Below, one piece after another: positions 5,895 through 37,607 of a stretch of 64,000 bases of DNA. The position numbers were made by a program, and so were the translations under genes. Position 1 is the stretch's first letter. Every line of letters starts with the position of its first letter. The notes below the pieces were generated by a model. That model was not told the origin of the DNA. It did no database searches and worked only from the letters and a program-made list of their open reading frames with translations. The stretch is from an uncultured delta proteobacterium (lineage in GTDB: Bacteria; Desulfobacterota; Binatia; Binatales; Binataceae), in assembly GCA_963747845.1 (NCBI GenBank), contig CAVVGR010000005.1, forward strand, positions 3,508-67,507. The letters run 5' to 3'.

Positions 5895-6284
5895 ATGCCT
5901 CGCAAGAAAGTCTCTCGCGGAGCCGCGTCTGCGTTCCAACAAGTACAGCGACAAGCGCGCACCTTGTTAGTCAATCTGCGCAAGGACATTCGGGCAAAGG
6001 AATCGATACTCAGTAAACTCAAGGAAGAGGAAGAGCGGCTGGGCGCGTTGATCGGCAACGGCGGTGGCGGCGTTGCGGCTAAAGCTGTGAGCAGCGGTCC
6101 GCGCGGACGGGTCAACTGGCGCAACGTGCTAATCGCACTTCCCAAGCAGTTCAAGGCGGCTGACGTGCGCAACGTGCGGGGACTCAAGGGCAAGCGGCCG
6201 TCGGAAATTTTCGCGGCGATCACGCGCTGGATAGACGCCGGCGCTGCAAAACGCAAAGCGCGCGGAGTATACGAGAGAGTATAG
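5895..6284 (+). CDS. Small basic hypothetical protein, predicted coiled coil + winged helix (candidate nucleoid-associated protein)
   Basis: AAGGAG RBS, own terminator, K/R-rich, heptad-like N-terminus, Gly/Ala linker, C-terminal KRKARGVYE wing-like motif. Confidence 0.75.
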   Translation: MPRKKVSRGAASAFQQVQRQARTLLVNLRKDIRAKESILSKLKEEEERLGALIGNGGGGVAAKAVSSGPRGRVNWRNVLIALPKQFKAADVRNVRGLKGKRPSEIFAAITRWIDAGAAKRKARGVYERV

Positions 6285-6339
6285 TCAAAGCTGCGCGCGA
6301 ATTGGCCGCATACGCCATCGCGCCAGGAGATTCGAATTG

Positions 6340-26838: not shown

Positions 26839-27127
26839 TGCAGCGCCCAAAAGCGCAACGATAATGACTTGTATGGCTGTAATGCCAGACACTAAGGCCG
26901 CCGCCACCCGGCAGCACTAACTTCTAAATCTGAAACAAAAGATTACTTTTCTTAATTGTAATTAGTGCAGGGTTACACCTCCCCAGAGCATGAAGCCCAC
27001 ATGCGTTTAGCATTGGATGAAGTGACCGCGAGCGCTTGACACATCTGGTTGTCGCGCGCAGGCTCAATGCGCAGTAGAAATCCGGCGGCGATTATCGAGC
27101 CGGAAAGATCCCGGGCCCGAAGATTCG

Positions 27128-27462
27128 ATGCTATCCAGGTTTCGCAAATGCAGTAGAGCGGCGGCGCGCGCCATCGCGATTTTCGGCGCTGCGCTATTGC
27201 TCATCTCGCAGACGGTGGGCGTCGCTCATTTTCATGAGAACGCCGGTGTTCGCGACGGTATCGTAGCCGCGCAGCCTGTCACCGACCCGGGCCTCTGCCC
27301 GGTTTGCCAGCTCGCGATGCATTCGCCGGTCTCGGTCGCGTCGGCGCTGACCGTGGCGCGAGGACCTGCGATAGCCGAGACCTATTTGTCGATACGCCGG
27401 TCAGATTCGATTCGCCGGTGTTCTCGGACGCGCGCGTGCGCGCTCCGCCCACAGCGCTCTAG
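27128..27462 (+). CDS. DUF2946-like leader peptide with CxxC and C-terminal RAPP motif; one-base homopolymer deletion near 27387
   Basis: Signal-like N-terminus, AHFHE, CPVC; -1 frame continues VFSDARVRAPPTAL*. Confidence 0.75.
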
Positions 27463-27463
27463 A

Positions 27464-27547
27464 TCCCCTTTCGACACATCCGATTTTCTATGGTGCGCGC
27501 GACAGGTTTCGCGCGGCGCCGCTCGCGTCCGAAGGCGCGAGAGGGGA
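27464..27547 (+). promoter_or_regulatory. Anti-SD/SD helix between the RAPP uORF and the TonB-dependent receptor
   Basis: TCCCCTTTCG (27464-27473) pairs over 10 bp with CGAGAGGGGA (27538-27547), which precedes the in-frame TTG at 27551. Confidence 0.55.
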
Positions 27548-27574
27548 ACCTTGAGACGGTATGGGGAGCTTGTG

Positions 27575-29990
27575 ATGCGAAGGAGTTTATTTGCGCGAAT
27601 CTCACTTGGCGGGATTCTGATTCAATTGGCTATTCAACTGGCTATTTGCACGCCAGCGATGGCGGAAAATTTGAAGACCCCGACGAAAGCGAAATATCGA
27701 ATCACGGGCGTGGTGAAGGACGCGCTCGGCCGGCCGCTCGGGCAGGCAGAACTGACTATCCAGGGCTCGAACGGCAAGGTGGTGGCCCGCGCGTCGAGCA
27801 ACGATGCGGGTGAGTTTACGTTCCACGTAATGAGACGCGGCACTGATGCGGTGGTGGCGAGCAAGGGCGGGTTCAAGACGGCGACAGCGATAGTCGCGGT
27901 CTGGCCAAGGGCGCCGCGCCGGTGACGGTCGCGATGGAAGCGGAGAAGGAGGTCAGCCTCAAGGTCGCGGCCAAGCGGCTAACCAGGTCCGCAACTCGTT
28001 GTCGCCGGATACCGGCGGCAGCAAGTACACGTTCACCGCGCAGGCAATCCATGATTTGCCGCAGGGCGCGAACACTCCCCTCAACCAGGTGATACTGCAG
28101 GCGCCCGGCGTCGCGCAGGATCCGTACGGACAGATCCACGTGCGCGGCGACCATGCCAACCTTCAGTACCGGATCAACGGGATCCAGCTCCCCGAGGGCA
28201 TCACCGGCTTCGGGCAGGTACTGAGCCCGCGCTTCGCCCAATCGATCAGCCTGCTGACCGGAGCGCTGCCGGCGCAGTACGGCCTGCGAACGGCGGGAAT
28301 TGTCGACATCAAGACCAAGGACGGGCTGCTCGACCCGCTCGCCGACGTGGATTTCTACGGCGGCCAGCGCGGGACGACCCAACCGAGCTTCGAGTACGGC
28401 GGCTCGAAGGGCAACTTCAGCTACTTCGTGACGGGGCAATACTACGGGACCGATCGCGGGGTCGAGCCGCCGACTTCCGGACCCACGGCGATTCACGACA
28501 CCAGCAACCAGGGCGCGGGCTTCGGCTATTTCTCGTACTTCATAAATTCGACGACGCGGCTGAGCCTGATCTCGGGAACCGCGATCAATCATTTTCAGAT
28601 TCCCGCCAATCCCGATCAGCCGCAGCTGTTCAAGCTGGCAGGCGTGCCGGTCTATCCGTCGGCGAAAGTGCGCGACAACCAGTTCGAGCAAAACTACTTC
28701 AACGTGCTCGCGTTGCAGGGCACTATCGGCGAGAATATCGACTACCAGCTCGCGCCGTTCAGCCGTTACTCGGCGGTCACCTTCAACCCGGACCACACCG
28801 GCGACCTGATTTACAACGGCGCCTCGTCGAAGGTTTTTCGCAGCGACTGGGGCAACGGTTTTCAGCTCGACACGGCCTATCACGGAATCGCCGATCATAC
28901 GTTCCGGCTGGGCGGGTATTTCGATGCGGAGCGCGCCGAGATCGACAATCATGAGTCGACCTTCCCCGCAGTCGGTGGCGTCCAATCGTCCGATATCCCG
29001 ATTTCGTTCGTCGACGATCTCGCGCTGCAGACCTGGATTTACAGCGGCTACATCCAGGACGAATGGAAGATGACAAAAAAGCTGACGTTCAATTACGGCG
29101 TCCGCTTCGACCTGTACGACGGCCTGGTGCGAGCCGACCAGGCCAGTCCCCGCGCTGCGTTCGAGTACAAGCTATTCCCGAGCACGACGCTGCACGCCGG
29201 CTATGCCCGCCAGATGACGCCGCCCGAGACCGAGCTGGTGTCGGTCAGCGATATCAAGCAGCTCAAGGACACGACCGGCGCGCCTCCGTCGAAGGGCAAC
29301 GGCAATCCGACTGTCGAGCGCGACCATTTGTTCGACGCCGGCGTGACGCAGGAGCTCATTCCGGGGCTCAACGTCGGCATCGATTCCTACTACAAGAAGG
29401 CATCCGAGCTGATAGACGAAGGACAGTTCGGCCCGGCGCTAATCTTCGAAACGTTCAACTACAACAAGGGCCGGGTCTGGGGAGTTGAGTTCACGGGCTC
29501 GTACACTCACGAGGGCTTCTACGCCTACAATAATTTCGCCTACAGCGTCGCGCAGGGTACGCAGGTGGAATCGGGGCAATTCAACTTCGCGCCCGACGAA
29601 CTGAAGTACATCAGCAGCCATTACATCTTCCTGGATCACGATCAGACCTTCACCAATTCCGCCGGAGTCGTTTACAACTGGCGTGGATGGATGTTCAGCG
29701 TCGATGGCATCTACGGCAGCGGCCTTCGTTCCGGCTTCGCCAACACCGGGAACTTGCCGTTTTATGTTCAGGTCGATGCCGGTATCACCCGGCGTGTGCC
29801 ATTGCCGAACAATCGCGGCGCGCTCGAGTTTCGCGGCGCCATCGTGAACCTCTTCGATCACACCTATCTCGTGCGAAATGGCACCGGAATCGGCGTTTTT
29901 GCCGACCAGTACGGCCCTCGCCGTGCGTTATACGGCGGGATAAAATACGAATTCCCGTTCACCAAGCCCCCAAGTGTGCAGACGCCATGA
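27575..29990 (+). CDS. TonB-dependent outer-membrane receptor with N-terminal carboxypeptidase-regulatory-like domain; frameshifts near 27915-27975; alternative TTG start 27551
   Basis: Signal peptide, YRITGVVKD, plug HVRGDHANLQYRINGIQLP, C-terminal VNLFDHTY...YGPRRALYGGIKYEF. Confidence 0.9.
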
Positions 29991-30148: not shown

Positions 30149-30820
30149 ATGCAGGAGTTAGGAGTAGCGTGGCAGGCAATCAAGTACGGCGGCGCGATGG
30201 TCTATCCGCTGCTGGCGCTTGGCGTCCTTGCCATCGCGATTATCATCGATCGGTCCGTGCTCTATGCGCGATGCCTGCGGATGCCGTCTGCGGTCGCCGA
30301 CCTGGTGGAGACGTTCGGATTTTCGTGGACCGAACTTGAGAAGCAGTTGAAGGAACTCGGCCCGCGCAACGCCTACGGCCGCTTCCTGCAAGTGATCGCC
30401 GACAATCGTCACCAGCCCGCATGGTGGGTCGAATCGCGGGCAGGTGACGAAGCGGGCCGAATAGAAAAGACCCTCGCCCGCGGACTGTGGGTGCTCGAAA
30501 CAGTCGTGACCGCCGCGCCGCTGCTCGGACTGCTCGGCACCATCACGGGCATGATGCAATCTTTCAACGTGATCGGCGCGTCGACGCTGGTCGCTCCGAC
30601 TCAAGTGACGGCGGGCGTCGCGCAGGCGCTGATTGCGACCGCGCTCGGTCTGCTGATAGCGGTGCTCTCGCTGTTCGCGTTCAACCTTTTCTCGCGGATG
30701 CAATCGCAGTCGCTCGACACGATGGAGCGCCTGGGCTCGCGGCTGGTCGATCACATCCGACTCGACCAGGAAGGCGGCGAGGCCGCACCCGGCCCGCGTC
30801 CCGCAGCAATAGCGCGATGA
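30149..30820 (+). CDS. exbB: MotA/TolQ/ExbB proton channel protein
   Basis: APLLGLLGTITGMM, GVAQALIATALGL. Confidence 0.92.
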   Translation: MQELGVAWQAIKYGGAMVYPLLALGVLAIAIIIDRSVLYARCLRMPSAVADLVETFGFSWTELEKQLKELGPRNAYGRFLQVIADNRHQPAWWVESRAGDEAGRIEKTLARGLWVLETVVTAAPLLGLLGTITGMMQSFNVIGASTLVAPTQVTAGVAQALIATALGLLIAVLSLFAFNLFSRMQSQSLDTMERLGSRLVDHIRLDQEGGEAAPGPRPAAIAR

Positions 30821-31215
30821 AAATTCAGCGCGCACGCCATTTTCGTCACGGGCGAATCGAAATCATCCCGATGATCGACGTGATGTTCTTTCTGCTGGTG
30901 ACCTTCATGCTCGCGTCGCTGTCGATGCAGAGTCTGAACTCCATCGCGGTCAATCTGCCCAAGGGCAACGCAGAATCGATGGAGCATCAGGAGCCCATCA
31001 CGCTGACCATCACGCACGACAGCCACATCTTTATCGACAAGACGCCGACCACGCTCGATCAACTGGCGTTCCTGCTAAAGCCGATGCTCCAGACCAACGA
31101 CCTCGGCGTGGTGGTCAACGCGGACACCGATGCGCCCGAGGGCACGGTGGTGGAAGCGATGATCGAGGCGCGGCGCGCGGGCGTCGAGAAATTTCTGATC
31201 GCAGTGAAGCACTGA
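30817..31215 (+). CDS. exbD: ExbD/TolR biopolymer transport protein
   Basis: IEIIPMIDVMFFLLVTFM, VNLP; ATGA overlap with exbB. Confidence 0.92.
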   Translation: MKIQRARHFRHGRIEIIPMIDVMFFLLVTFMLASLSMQSLNSIAVNLPKGNAESMEHQEPITLTITHDSHIFIDKTPTTLDQLAFLLKPMLQTNDLGVVVNADTDAPEGTVVEAMIEARRAGVEKFLIAVKH

Positions 31216-31216
31216 C

Positions 31217-31964
31217 ATGGCCGACGCAGCCCGAATCGCGATACGCCCGCCGGAGCTCGACGAGCCGGCGCGCCGCCTGCTGTGGATCATCCCGGCGGCT
31301 ATCGCGATCTGGGCGCTTTTACTCAGCGTCTTTTCAATCGATCCTGACGCGCACGGCGGTGCCGCAACGAGGAGCAGACGCCGATCCAGGCGCAACTGGT
31401 CGAGATCCGCCAAGGAAATCGGCGGGCTGCAGGGCAATGGCGGCGCGCTGCATCCGTCGGCGCCGGCGATTCCGCATCCCAAGGCCGCGCCGAGCAAGCC
31501 TCATCCCGTCAAGTCATCTGAAGAAGGCAGCGCCCTTGCCGCCGGTGATTCGTTCACCCTACGGCACCGAAAAATCGACCTCGGCTCCGAGCGTCGAAGC
31601 ACCGGCGGGCGCGAGCACAGGCAGCGCTTCGGAGAGCGAAGAGAGGCGGCGGCGATCGGATACCGGCGAAGGTTCGGGCGGCGGCATCGGCAGCGATACG
31701 GTCGGTGCGCGCGCGATCTACGCGCCGACGCCGGTGATACCCGACGATCTTCGCGAGGACGTGATCCAGACCGAGGCGGTCGCGCGCTTCAACGTGTCGT
31801 TCGATGGCGCCAGCGAGGTGACGCTGGAAAAGCCGACCTCGAGCCCGCGCCTCAACCAGGTGCTGCTCGACACGCTCAAGCAGTGGAAATTTTTCCCGGC
31901 GGTGAAGAACGGCGTCGCGATTCCGTCGTCGTTCGAAGTTCGAATACCGATTTCAGTTCAGTAA
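31217..31964 (+). CDS. tonB: TonB energy transducer; several frameshifts
   Basis: N-terminal TM anchor, Pro-rich linker, C-terminal LLDTLKQWKFFPAVKNGVAIP. Confidence 0.8.
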
Positions 31965-35689: not shown

Positions 35690-37607
35690 ATGTCGCAGAG
35701 TACGAGATCTGAGTTAAGCCCTGAGGCGACTCAGGCGGATCGCCTATTCGCCGGTTTCCTCGGCTTATTCGTCGTTATTGCTTTCTCGCGCCTTTTTTCT
35801 CTGAGCGGATCACCGCTCCAATCCTACTTCCCTATTTTAATTTATCAGGACGTCGCGTTTTGGTCCGTAATTGCCTGGTTCTTTTACGGGCTTCTGAGGC
35901 TCTCGACCGCAAGGAGAGCGGTGCTTGTCGCTGGATGGGGCGTTTGCATTTTGATCGCTCTCTATACGGCGATCGATTTAGTCATCTACCTGGAGACCCG
36001 CAGCCCGTTGACCTATCGGCTCTGGCTTGCGGCTGACGACGGACGCGGTATCGAAGCGTCGGTGTCGCAGGCCGTTTCGCTCTTAAGGGTTTTCGTACCC
36101 GGGATTCCTGATCGTGATGGTTGTCGTAGCGGTGTCGCTGCGGTGGTTCGCACCTAACGTGCTGACGCGCCTCCGTACAGGATTTTACTCACCGTTCATC
36201 GCCGTGGTCATGTTCATCTACGTTCTGGGTGCGAACTGGTGGACAACTACCTATGTTACCCATAGGGCAATTGCCGCGAATCCTGAGTGGGCGCTGTTGT
36301 CTTCACTATTCGATCAGCCGATACCAAGAGTCACTGAAGTCATTCCGCCGGACTACATCAAGGATTTTCTTCCAGCAACTCAGACTAGTGCCGCAGGAGT
36401 TCTTCCGTCGCAGTCCGCCGTCTTCACTCCGGCGGTAGATCCTTCGGCGCAGCGTCCTATGAACATCGTCATGATAGTTATGGAGTCTACGGGCGCGAAG
36501 CGGTTACAACTATATGGAGCTTCATACAAGGACAGTCCCGAGATGGTGCGGCTAGCCGATCATGGCGTGGTGTTTGACCATATCTACGCGGCACAGTCTT
36601 ATACCTCGGCGGCAATGGCCGGCCTTTTCTGCTCGCTTTATCCTGAGCACGGCTGGCTGAACCTGCTTCGACAATCGCCCGACATAGGAGTGACCGGCCT
36701 GGCGGACGTACTAGCTGCCCACGGTTACCGAACTGCTTTTTTGCACGAGGGACAGTTAGGGTTCGACAATCAGCTGGAATTTATCGAAAGCCATGGGTTC
36801 CAGCAGGTGTTTTTCCGAGACAAGGATCCTCTTGTTTCAAGTGACTCGGCATTGGTGCCAATCGCGGAAAAGTGGATCAAATCAGATGACAAGAAGCCGT
36901 TCTTTCTGCTGGTTTGGACACAGGATACCCATCATCCATATCTTGTAAATTCGAATGACGATTACGGCACCGGAAATCCGAGGCTGAACAAGTACCTTAA
37001 CGCGGTAAGATCGACTGACTCTATTATCGCGCAATTGATGCATAGCCTGGATGAGCTGAATATTGCCGACAATACTATCGTAGTGATAACCGGCGACCAC
37101 GGCGAAGCATTCGGCGAACATGGCCAGCTTGCTCACGGTTTCACGACCTATAACGAAGAACTCCATGTCCCTTTGATTTTGGTCAATCCAAAATTATTTC
37201 CGCATGGAACACGAAATGCTTCGCTAGGCAGGCAGATAGACATCGCGCCGACACTCCTGGGACTCCTGGGATACGACAAGCCGCAATCATGGCAGGGAAC
37301 GAATCTTCTCGGCGCACACCCTGCGGAACGCGCGTATTTGTTTTCCTACTCGGGAGATTTCTCGCTGGGAATCGTCGAAGGAAACTTCAAATACATCCAC
37401 GACTTCGATCAGAACCGCGATGAACTATACGACTTGTCCAACGATCCGGAAGAGACCCGGGATCTTGGCGCGGAACCGGAGTACAAAGAGATGGTCGCCC
37501 GCGATCGTCTGCGGGTGGATGCATGGCTGTCGTTCCAGGACAAGTATCTGGCAAGCTTTCCACCGGCGCATCAAAATCAACTGTCAGTTGAGCATAAGAT
37601 AGAGTAG
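35690..37607 (+). CDS. Membrane-anchored LtaS/sulfatase-like (alkaline phosphatase superfamily) protein; frameshift near 36090
   Basis: N-terminal TM helices, VMES, YAAQSYTS (no CxPxR), THHPY, TGDHG. Confidence 0.85.

Follow-up and report, generated by a model that had tools for sequence, protein, structure and literature searches.

The locus at positions 27128-27462 of the DNA analysed here, a window of 64,000 nucleotides (nt) of the forward strand of contig CAVVGR010000005.1 from an uncultured delta proteobacterium of the Binataceae (GenBank assembly GCA_963747845.1), raises the question of whether a short gene that is interrupted by a change of reading frame, and that stands directly ahead of the genes for a TonB-dependent receptor, ExbB, ExbD and TonB, encodes a peptide that senses a metal while it is being synthesized and regulates the operon by arresting its own ribosome. 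By analogy with characterized systems, it is probable that this is a CruR-type leader gene, which in a Candidatus Binatus (Binataceae) metagenome-assembled genome (MAG) heads a receptor-exbB-exbD-tonB operon, and for which arrest, metal sensing, the sign of the regulation and the output would follow the pattern of the known homologues. The observed part of this explanation comprises the architecture of the leader, its conservation, the structure of the operon and the assembly artefact that interrupts the gene.

The frame opened by the ATG at 27128 on the + strand reads MLSRFRKCSRAAARAIAIFGAALLLISQTVGVAHFHENAGVRDGIVAAQPVTDPGLCPVCQLAMHSPVSVASALTVARGPAIAETYL, with the stretches MLSRFRKCSRAAARAIAIFGAALLLISQTVGVAHFHENAG...GLCPVCQLAMHSP...AIAETYL, and it is free of stops up to 27925, crossing the spacer into the receptor gene. 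In the phase shifted by one base (+2), translation yields ...FVDTPVRFDSPVFSDARVRAPPTAL followed by a stop, with the C-terminus ...ARVRAPPTAL and the stop codon TAG at 27460-27462. The receptor ATG lies at 27575, which leaves a spacer of 112 nt between the leader stop and the receptor start. When the two parts are joined by the one-base repair described below, the leader protein comprises 111 amino acids (aa), and its open reading frame (ORF) has the following features.

27128-27382, + strand: leader ORF, residues 1-85, in the frame of ATG 27128, with a basic N-terminus and a hydrophobic helix
27227-27235, + strand: HFH, residues H34-F35-H36 of the leader
27296-27307, + strand: CPVC, residues C57-C60 of the leader
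27320-27322, + strand: codon of H65, in the part of the leader that holds residues 1-85
27382-27383, + strand: site of the one-base deletion, where the G of the Val86 codon (GTA/GTG) is absent from the assembly
27383-27462, + strand: leader ORF, residues 86-111 and stop, translated in the shifted frame
27439-27450, + strand: RAPP codons, R105-A-P-P108, followed by TAL and the stop
27445-27447 and 27448-27450, + strand: codons of Pro107 and Pro108, expected to occupy the P-site and the A-site, in that order, of the ribosome, after the CruR toeprint (PMC12992588)

Translation from ATG 27128 bears out the ORF of ~110 aa with a signal-like N-terminus, HxH and CPVC that the initial annotation of this DNA had described. 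The same is true of the C-terminus ...RVRAPPTAL that it had placed about 110 nt ahead of a receptor gene followed by exbB, exbD and tonB, in view of the 112-nt spacer and of the Pfam matches reported below. Five basic residues occupy positions 1-14 of the leader and a hydrophobic stretch comes next. The AlphaFold2 model computed on the family alignment contains a helix over residues 5-39, which reaches a predicted local distance difference test (pLDDT) score of ~95 over residues 11-30 and corresponds to a membrane or signal segment; a second, short helix lies over residues 58-64 at CPVCQLAMH, and the remainder is disordered or without confident structure (mean pLDDT 69). The leader is predicted on this basis to be an N-in/C-out membrane-targeted peptide, and the disorder of most of the model beyond the helices is in keeping with a function exerted by the chain while it is nascent.

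Single intact ORFs of ~111 aa that cover residues 1-111 at 59-71% identity are present in genomes of the same genus, among 41 related genomes searched. When 185,579 species genomes (GTDB) were scanned for the pattern, 36 loci were returned, all of them in MAGs titled Candidatus Binatus, Binataceae or “delta proteobacterium”; a public protein collection holds 247 clusters of the family, nearly all exactly 111 aa long and named “hypothetical protein”; and a profile started from the intact copy at locus L047 and searched exhaustively against 1.84 billion representatives found 119 clusters at 50% identity. The geometry of the family is highly regular. CxxC and RAPP are separated by 44 residues in the window copy and in 97 of the 101 representatives that carry both motifs (range 42-45), exactly three residues follow RAPP in 74 of these representatives, and HxH lies ~20 residues ahead of CxxC in 99. 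Although the mean column identity across 68 aligned members is only 35%, H34, C57, C60, R105, P107 and P108, and no other residues, are invariant, and Q28, H36, H65 and A106 are more than 90% conserved; the residues invariant in 18 orthologues include H34, F35, H36, C57, P58, C60, Q61, L62, A63, H65, R105, A106, P107 and P108. The family profile matches only Binataceae in a sample of 201 genomes of the phylum. Judged from these sequence comparisons, the joined 111-aa protein is real, far beyond chance.

The class to which such a gene might belong has been characterized elsewhere. Proteins of the DUF2946 family combine CXXC with RAPP, stand first in operons and are followed by long spacers; over 95% of them carry an export signal, TonB-dependent transporters are a common cargo, and in more than 2000 members the two motifs lie 45 +/- 1-2 residues apart (Roy et al. 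2022, PMC9426467). One of them, CruR (Bp2923) of Bordetella pertussis, controls bfrG by copper-dependent relief of arrest and Rho-dependent termination (PMC9426467), and its arrest has been toeprinted in vitro with the two proline codons in the P and A sites (Fujiwara et al., EMBO J 2025, PMC12992588); upstream ORFs (uORFs) with RAPP or RGPP ahead of TonB receptors have been described as universal in Gram-negatives (PMC12992588). In the case of CutF, a DUF2946 protein of Rhodobacter capsulatus, the stalled ribosome melts a stem-loop that shields the next Shine-Dalgarno (SD) sequence, the regulation requires a Sec signal peptide, and copper induces the stall (10.1101/2022.11.11.516240; 10.1101/2025.02.05.636593). 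Both CruR and CutF exert their effect as nascent chains, and neither has been detected as a stable protein (PMC9426467; 10.1101/2022.11.11.516240).

The Binatus leader resembles CruR in its CxxC, in its RAPP three residues before the end, in the fixed spacing between them (45 residues in CruR, 44 here), in its position at the head of the operon, in the long conserved spacer (162 nt in CruR, 112 nt here) with a TonB-dependent transporter directly downstream, in an excess of C over G (a C>G bubble) across the end of the uORF and the spacer, and in having no intrinsic terminator. It differs in that it comes from the Binataceae rather than the Proteobacteria and scores under the Pfam threshold, in its length (111 aa as against 145 aa), in an additional set of invariant or nearly invariant histidines (HxH 20 residues before CxxC and H five after it), and in that its operon has its own exbB-exbD-tonB where that of CruR has a PepSY_TM gene. 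With CutF it shares the form of a small Sec-targeted leader with a cysteine motif and a C-terminal proline stalling motif, and a spacer RNA that can shield the downstream SD sequence and that a stalled ribosome would melt, although in Binatus this helix is a prediction without covariation support; CutF, however, has CxxxC and a PPP-type tail, controls the detoxifying multicopper oxidase cutO, and requires a signal peptide, whereas CruR functions without its own. ApdA, ApdP, SecM and the RAPP/RGPP uORFs likewise combine a C-terminal RAPP or RGPP motif with a localisation signal, and they arrest while RAP-tRNA occupies the P-site and Pro-tRNA the A-site, but the task of ApdA, ApdP and SecM is to monitor the Sec or YidC machinery, and metal ligands are absent from them.

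A search with the DUF2946 profile hidden Markov model (PF11162), which the initial annotation had proposed as a check, gave a divided answer: DUF2946 is the best Pfam match for all 18 orthologues, though below threshold (best E 1.4e-4), and the repaired window copy scores 15.4 bits where the gathering cut-off is 23.7. The L047 copy reaches 18.2 bits against the same 23.7. In a six-frame search, the model exceeds its cut-off in only 1 of 31 genomes of the genus; the orthologue P0104 has a precomputed PF11162 annotation, and one paralogue scores 25.7 bits. Scores that fall around the cut-off in this way place the family at the edge of the DUF2946 model. The leader is accordingly best filed, by analogy, as what appears to be a diverged, lineage-restricted branch at that edge which would work like CruR, because it has the motifs and the architecture of the class, falls below the Pfam threshold, and belongs to a profile that matches Binataceae alone. 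At the level of sequence, the proposed assignment to the CruR/DUF2946 class is supported (CxxC, RAPP, the spacing of 44, the N-terminal segment, the operon-first position, the ~110-nt spacer and the receptor downstream), and there is good reason to think that the locus is a further member of the already described CruR/CutF class of metal-sensing leader peptides.

The genes that follow the leader, whose full order (leader, receptor, exbB, exbD, tonB) recurs in ~30 of 35 related loci, are these.

27575-29990, + strand: TonB-dependent receptor gene, ~805 aa when intact, with Pfam domains CarboxypepD_reg, Plug and TonB_dep_Rec_b-barrel
30149-30820, + strand: exbB, 223 aa, intact and in one frame, MotA_ExbB 1.2e-25, 86% identical to the G018 orthologue
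30817-31215, + strand: exbD, 132 aa, intact, its start overlapping the exbB stop, ExbD 6.9e-25, 90% identical to the G018 orthologue
31217-31964, + strand: tonB, its frame broken near 31506-31510 (~245 aa when intact), with the TonB_C domain in the second frame

The receptor gene is spread over three frames in tblastn alignments (27566-27901, 27907-27984 and 27981-29987) as the result of two one-base deletions near 27902 and 27989, and tonB over two (31217-31510 and 31506-31961), with insertions or deletions relative to relatives at 31339-31510; an intact receptor orthologue, P0002, has 807 aa. No sequence relative of the receptor was found in the PDB at E <= 1e-3, and it matched neither the OprC-type model (TIGR01778) nor any other equivalog, giving weak matches to generic TonB-receptor subfamilies only. 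Its N-terminus (27575-27925; residues 43-110 of P0002) is a carboxypeptidase-regulatory-like, immunoglobulin-like (Ig-like) domain ahead of the plug. A weak NikL-like match of the receptor was rejected as due to this Ig-like domain alone. The mature part of the receptor has no cysteine.

Since RAPP is reached only in the second frame of the leader, it is necessary to determine whether the break in the window copy is an error of the assembly or a real mutation. When the joined 111-aa sequence is used as the query, the window copy splits into pieces covering residues 1-87 and 84-111, while the leader is uninterrupted in all 35 relatives that cover the stretch. Contigs of relatives that are 93-98% identical, from three independent soil or peat DNA runs, have one extra base at 27381/27382, and the same base is present in relatives' contigs from two soil metatranscriptome runs. 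The L047 copy (SPRUCE 376 MAG, 93-95% identical; leader intact and 98% identical at the protein level) reads GAGACTGTGTTTGTC where the window has GAGAC-CTATTTGTC, and P0054, a database protein that is 99% identical, is intact, with AETVFVDTP and ...AIAETVFVDTPVRFDSPVFSDARVRAPPTAL. These three lines of evidence together locate the missing base as the G of the valine codon, after 27382. The initial annotation was therefore right that one base is missing and right about the frame that follows, but the T that it restored in TATTT(T)G near 27387 gives way to a G after 27382, and the residue at the repair site is V86 instead of Y, the one residue that differs.

The relatives' contigs also supply a C behind 27902 and a G behind 27989, which restore the receptor gene. 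Across the source genome, 51 of 158 ORFs change frame, with 69 changes or ~0.36 per kilobase (kb) of coding sequence, and proteins that are 94-97% identical to those of the relative are among those affected; for this rate, ORFs of 250 aa or more were taken from 400 kb of a complete relative's genome, and those with orthologous cover in the source genome were counted. As a control, tblastn of the operon against 35 other genomes shows zero frame changes in 26 of them and scattered breaks in a subset of the related long-contig MAGs. Reads of the source sample were not found in two index searches, which returned relatives only (the best run contained 0.47 of the sampled words), and the indel was for this reason judged only against the relatives and the genome-wide error rate. 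Given the extra base in the relatives, the repair of the receptor gene by their contigs and the breaks throughout the genome, the frameshift in the leader is almost certainly, as far as sequence comparison can tell, a one-base deletion from an error-prone assembly and not biology. The outcome that the initial annotation had named as fatal to its proposal, namely that there is no indel and RAPP lies out of frame, is very unlikely given the genome-wide frameshift rate and the intact relatives.

Other irregularities of the same kind lie nearby. Two overlapping ORFs on the same strand, at 35690-36157 (155 aa) and 36114-37607 (497 aa), have the appearance of a single gene that was split when an extra base, absent in three relatives, came in at 36097. 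One-base insertions or deletions relative to all close relatives are also found in non-coding DNA at 27057, 27104, 27529-27533 and 27556; the extra A at 27556 lies within the spacer, and such non-coding indels may distort RNA folds of the window copy alone.

Two other accounts of the broken frame can be weighed against an assembly error. The operon might truly be decaying in this strain, its breaks (one in the leader, two in the receptor and one in tonB) being genuine mutations, so that RAPP is not translated. The operon has four breaks over ~4.6 kb where ~1.65 would be expected from the genome rate, a number that is high but not extraordinary (Poisson P ~0.09); ppk1, an M20 peptidase gene, exbB and exbD nearby have none, and the source reads could not be inspected. 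Against decay, ~0.36 frame changes per kb are found genome-wide, even in proteins that are 94-97% identical to those of the relative, the gene at 35690-37607 just outside the operon is split as well (indel at 36097), one-base indels against all relatives extend to nearby non-coding positions, and the same scattered breaks recur in a subset of related long-contig MAGs, so that we give pseudogenization only a slim chance. A programmed -1 ribosomal frameshift, which would conditionally join the sensor part to the RAPP tail, could be suspected from the -1 relation between the frames of the two parts and from the short run of T next to the junction, but the junction has no slippery heptamer of the form X XXY YYZ, all 35 other loci and 247 protein clusters have a single frame, and frame breaks are scattered at random throughout the genome. 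Its probability is negligible, and it was rejected on account of the missing slippery site and of the single frame in every relative. Apparent frameshifts and pseudogenes in this MAG are mostly artefacts, and they should not be read as biology.

The RNA between the leader and the receptor is the natural place in which to look for the step that converts an arrest into a change of expression. Its features in the window are as follows.

27463-27574, + strand: conserved spacer, 112 nt, from the alignment of 36 loci
About 27463-27491, + strand: C/U-rich, G-poor tract right after the stop
About 27492-27520, + strand: GC hairpin 1 (RNAalifold)
About 27521-27542, + strand: GC hairpin 2 (RNAalifold)
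27563-27568, + strand: Shine-Dalgarno sequence GGGGAG

Across the 36 loci, the spacer is 105-114 nt long with a mean column identity of 76%, which makes it as conserved as the coding sequence, and its general layout is a C/U tract, two GC hairpins, and GGGAG 7-8 nt ahead of the AUG. Of the hairpin cells, 96-99% are paired, and diverged paralogues keep the two-hairpin layout with other stem sequences, which amounts to qualitative covariation. In minimum free energy (MFE) folds of several orthologues, the region from the receptor SD through its spacer to the AUG pairs with the last codons of the leader, the stop and the C-run that follows, the partner of the SD region extending from +5 to +23 relative to the first base of the P-site proline codon; across the 36 loci, 83-92% of the cells of the two SD-pairing helices are paired, as compared with 28-58% for slid controls. 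According to these models, a ribosome arrested at RAPP would cover about half of the strand that pairs with the SD. The region from the RAPP codons through the post-stop tract forms the centre of a C>G bubble (+0.16 to +0.23), the genome contains a rho gene (699 bits), and neither an intrinsic terminator nor an Rfam family was found in the leader-receptor spacer. Both a Rho output of the CruR type and an SD-unmasking output of the CutF/SecM type are retained, and the two rank about equally: Rho-dependent termination or polarity is the foremost candidate, tentatively and without reaching even odds, re-closure of the ribosome-binding site comes close behind it, and the operation of both together is a less likely option.

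In some orthologues (e.g. L056 and L061, ~45-60 nt past the stop), the spacer hairpin stretch TTCGCGCGCCGCCAC, if read in a different frame, would encode F-R-A-P-P. The stretch is similar to the one that codes for RAPP, GCGCGCGTGCGCGCTCCGCC, and alternative GC-rich pairings between the two are conceivable, although the similarity is probably a by-product of composition.

The mechanism that we propose on the model of CruR may be described as follows. The ribosome would arrest when Pro107 occupies its P-site and Pro108 its A-site; the CxxC/His cluster, 44 residues upstream, would at that moment be just out of the exit tunnel. Metal bound to the ligand set (H34-x-H36, C57-x-x-C60 and H65) would alter the force on the nascent chain or its conformation, and hence the duration of the arrest. 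The arrested ribosome would sit on the last codons of the leader, which together with the C-rich tract after the stop can, in the predicted folds, pair with the receptor SD and AUG, and which also appear to make up a rut-like (C>G) region. If CruR is taken as the guide, the arrest would persist without metal and the operon would be expressed, while with metal the arrest would be released, the ribosome would terminate, and the operon would be turned off. This metal-represses logic was chosen because CruR also serves an uptake system.

Several considerations weigh against the explanation as a whole. Arrest, metal binding and regulation are all carried over from homologues, the sign of the regulation could be reversed, given that metal induces the arrest in CutF, and, the source reads not having been found, a genuine mutation in this single strain keeps a small probability. 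The DUF2946 score of the repaired window copy corresponds to an E-value of just 0.03, below the gathering cut-off, and E <= 0.01 is reached by just 18 of 68 family members. With regard to the output, compensatory changes in the SD-pairing helix are few, duplexes between leader ends and start regions are about equally stable for cognate (-16.3 kcal/mol) and non-cognate (-15.7 kcal/mol) pairs, most cognate duplexes are no better than those formed with shuffled leader ends, and a constraint that represents a 28-nt stalled footprint raises the predicted accessibility of the SD merely from 0.17 to 0.22. Since the footprint hardly changes SD accessibility and the duplexes lack specificity, the anti-SD helix is not claimed as established.

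The same body of evidence must be set against two other views of what the leader does. If it followed CutF, export would pull the chain out of arrest, periplasmic metal would cause arrest, and the system would be induced by the metal or a metal complex; CutF, itself a DUF2946 protein, acts in this way with an SD-shielding stem-loop (10.1101/2022.11.11.516240; 10.1101/2025.02.05.636593), and the strong transmembrane or signal segment of the Binatus leader, as well as the predicted ability of its spacer to pair with the ribosome-binding region, would suit such a scheme. The cargo, however, is an uptake system as it is for CruR, where metal represses (PMC9426467), and the CxxC, the spacing of 44 and the RAPP followed by three residues are those of CruR, where CutF has CxxxC and a proline-rich PPP tail, which leaves the opposite logic unlikely, though of real weight. 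A view that we regard as decidedly improbable is that the product is a stable metal-binding protein of the periplasm or membrane, such as a chaperone or receptor accessory, in which RAPP plays no role in arrest. An export or membrane segment joined to conserved His/Cys ligands would suit such a protein, the -3/-1 rule suggests a possible signal-peptidase site, VGVA/HFH, cleavage at which would leave an N-terminal histidine, and DUF2946 proteins have long been annotated as periplasmic components (PMC4176598). But R105, P107 and P108, at 44 residues from CxxC and ~3 from the stop, are among the most invariant residues and would be needless in a binding protein, AlphaFold2 predicts a fold for the transmembrane helix only, CruR and CutF act as nascent chains that have not been detected as stable proteins (PMC9426467; 10.1101/2022.11.11.516240), and the spacer RNA is conserved as much as the protein. 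The CruR-like reading, with repression by metal, is the one that we retain.

The operon may also be subject to control at the level of transcription. A promoter-like element lies upstream of the leader.

27036-27055, + strand: conserved promoter-like element, with a perfect TTGACA at 27036-27041 inside an inverted repeat

Most relatives have the inverted repeat TGACA-N9-TGTCA around this -35-like TTGACA. The upstream regions of orthologues, when aligned, share the pattern GCTTGACA.ATC.G...G.C...CGGCAGGCTC.AT with a conservation of at least 80%, and they are unrelated farther upstream. The strongly conserved block at 27036-27069 reads GCTTGACAcATCtGgttGtCa..CGGCAGGCTCgAT, and from its sequence it could be a promoter with the operator of a transcriptional regulator. 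A simple sigma-70 scan found no full promoter and no canonical -10 in the region. A metatranscriptome contig of a relative begins at 27096, and the leader is transcribed in relatives, as seen from low-depth soil metatranscriptome contigs, in which a single RNA also spans the end of the leader, the spacer and the start of the receptor.

The identity of the metal may be approached through paralogues of the leader in the genus, which keep HxH, CxxC, the 44-residue spacing and RAPP and head different operons. Some precede other TonB receptors, which may or may not be accompanied by exbB-exbD-tonB. In two genomes (G006 and G015; L081, 6001-10287, and L096), a paralogue ending in ...ALTRAPP(I/A)AA and a stop heads a ZnuABC-type operon that encodes an exported protein of 484-488 aa, ZnuA (1.7e-53), an ATP-binding cassette (ABC) ATPase and an ABC-3 permease, so that the same type of leader also fronts a Zn/Mn-type ABC importer. 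In Caulobacter, DUF2946 genes respond to the loss of Zur (PMC4176598). Because the ligand set consists of two cysteines and two or three histidines, zinc or another divalent metal is as plausible as copper. A bolder proposal, which we regard as doubtful at present, is that the Binataceae leaders are paralogous nascent-chain sensors of divalent metals other than copper, zinc being the leading candidate, in which the ligand set, Cys2-His2/3 (HxH...CxxC-x4-H), would adopt a zinc-knuckle-like fold at the tunnel exit, 44 residues away from the peptidyl-transferase centre, and release the RAPP arrest by its folding force, and that the paralogues gate either TonB systems or an outer-membrane protein together with ZnuABC. 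One further locus, L073 (G004:C3), has a second copy of the leader at 6001-6336 that retains the spacer and a receptor-like start (ATGCAGAGG...); no long receptor ORF follows the leader there, the next genes encoding BacA/UppP and an SbmA/BacA-like ABC protein, and the locus may be the remnant of a duplication.

If the Binatus leader works as proposed, metal-sensing arrest peptides of the CruR/CutF type would extend to an uncultured soil lineage, the Binataceae, in which the gene is annotated as “hypothetical” and is missed by Pfam. The regularity of the family, with its His/Cys ligands, its spacing of 44 residues and its RAPP followed by three residues, could help to explain how the binding of a ligand is converted into the release or maintenance of an arrest, and the paralogues ahead of ZnuABC-type operons suggest that the principle is not restricted to copper.

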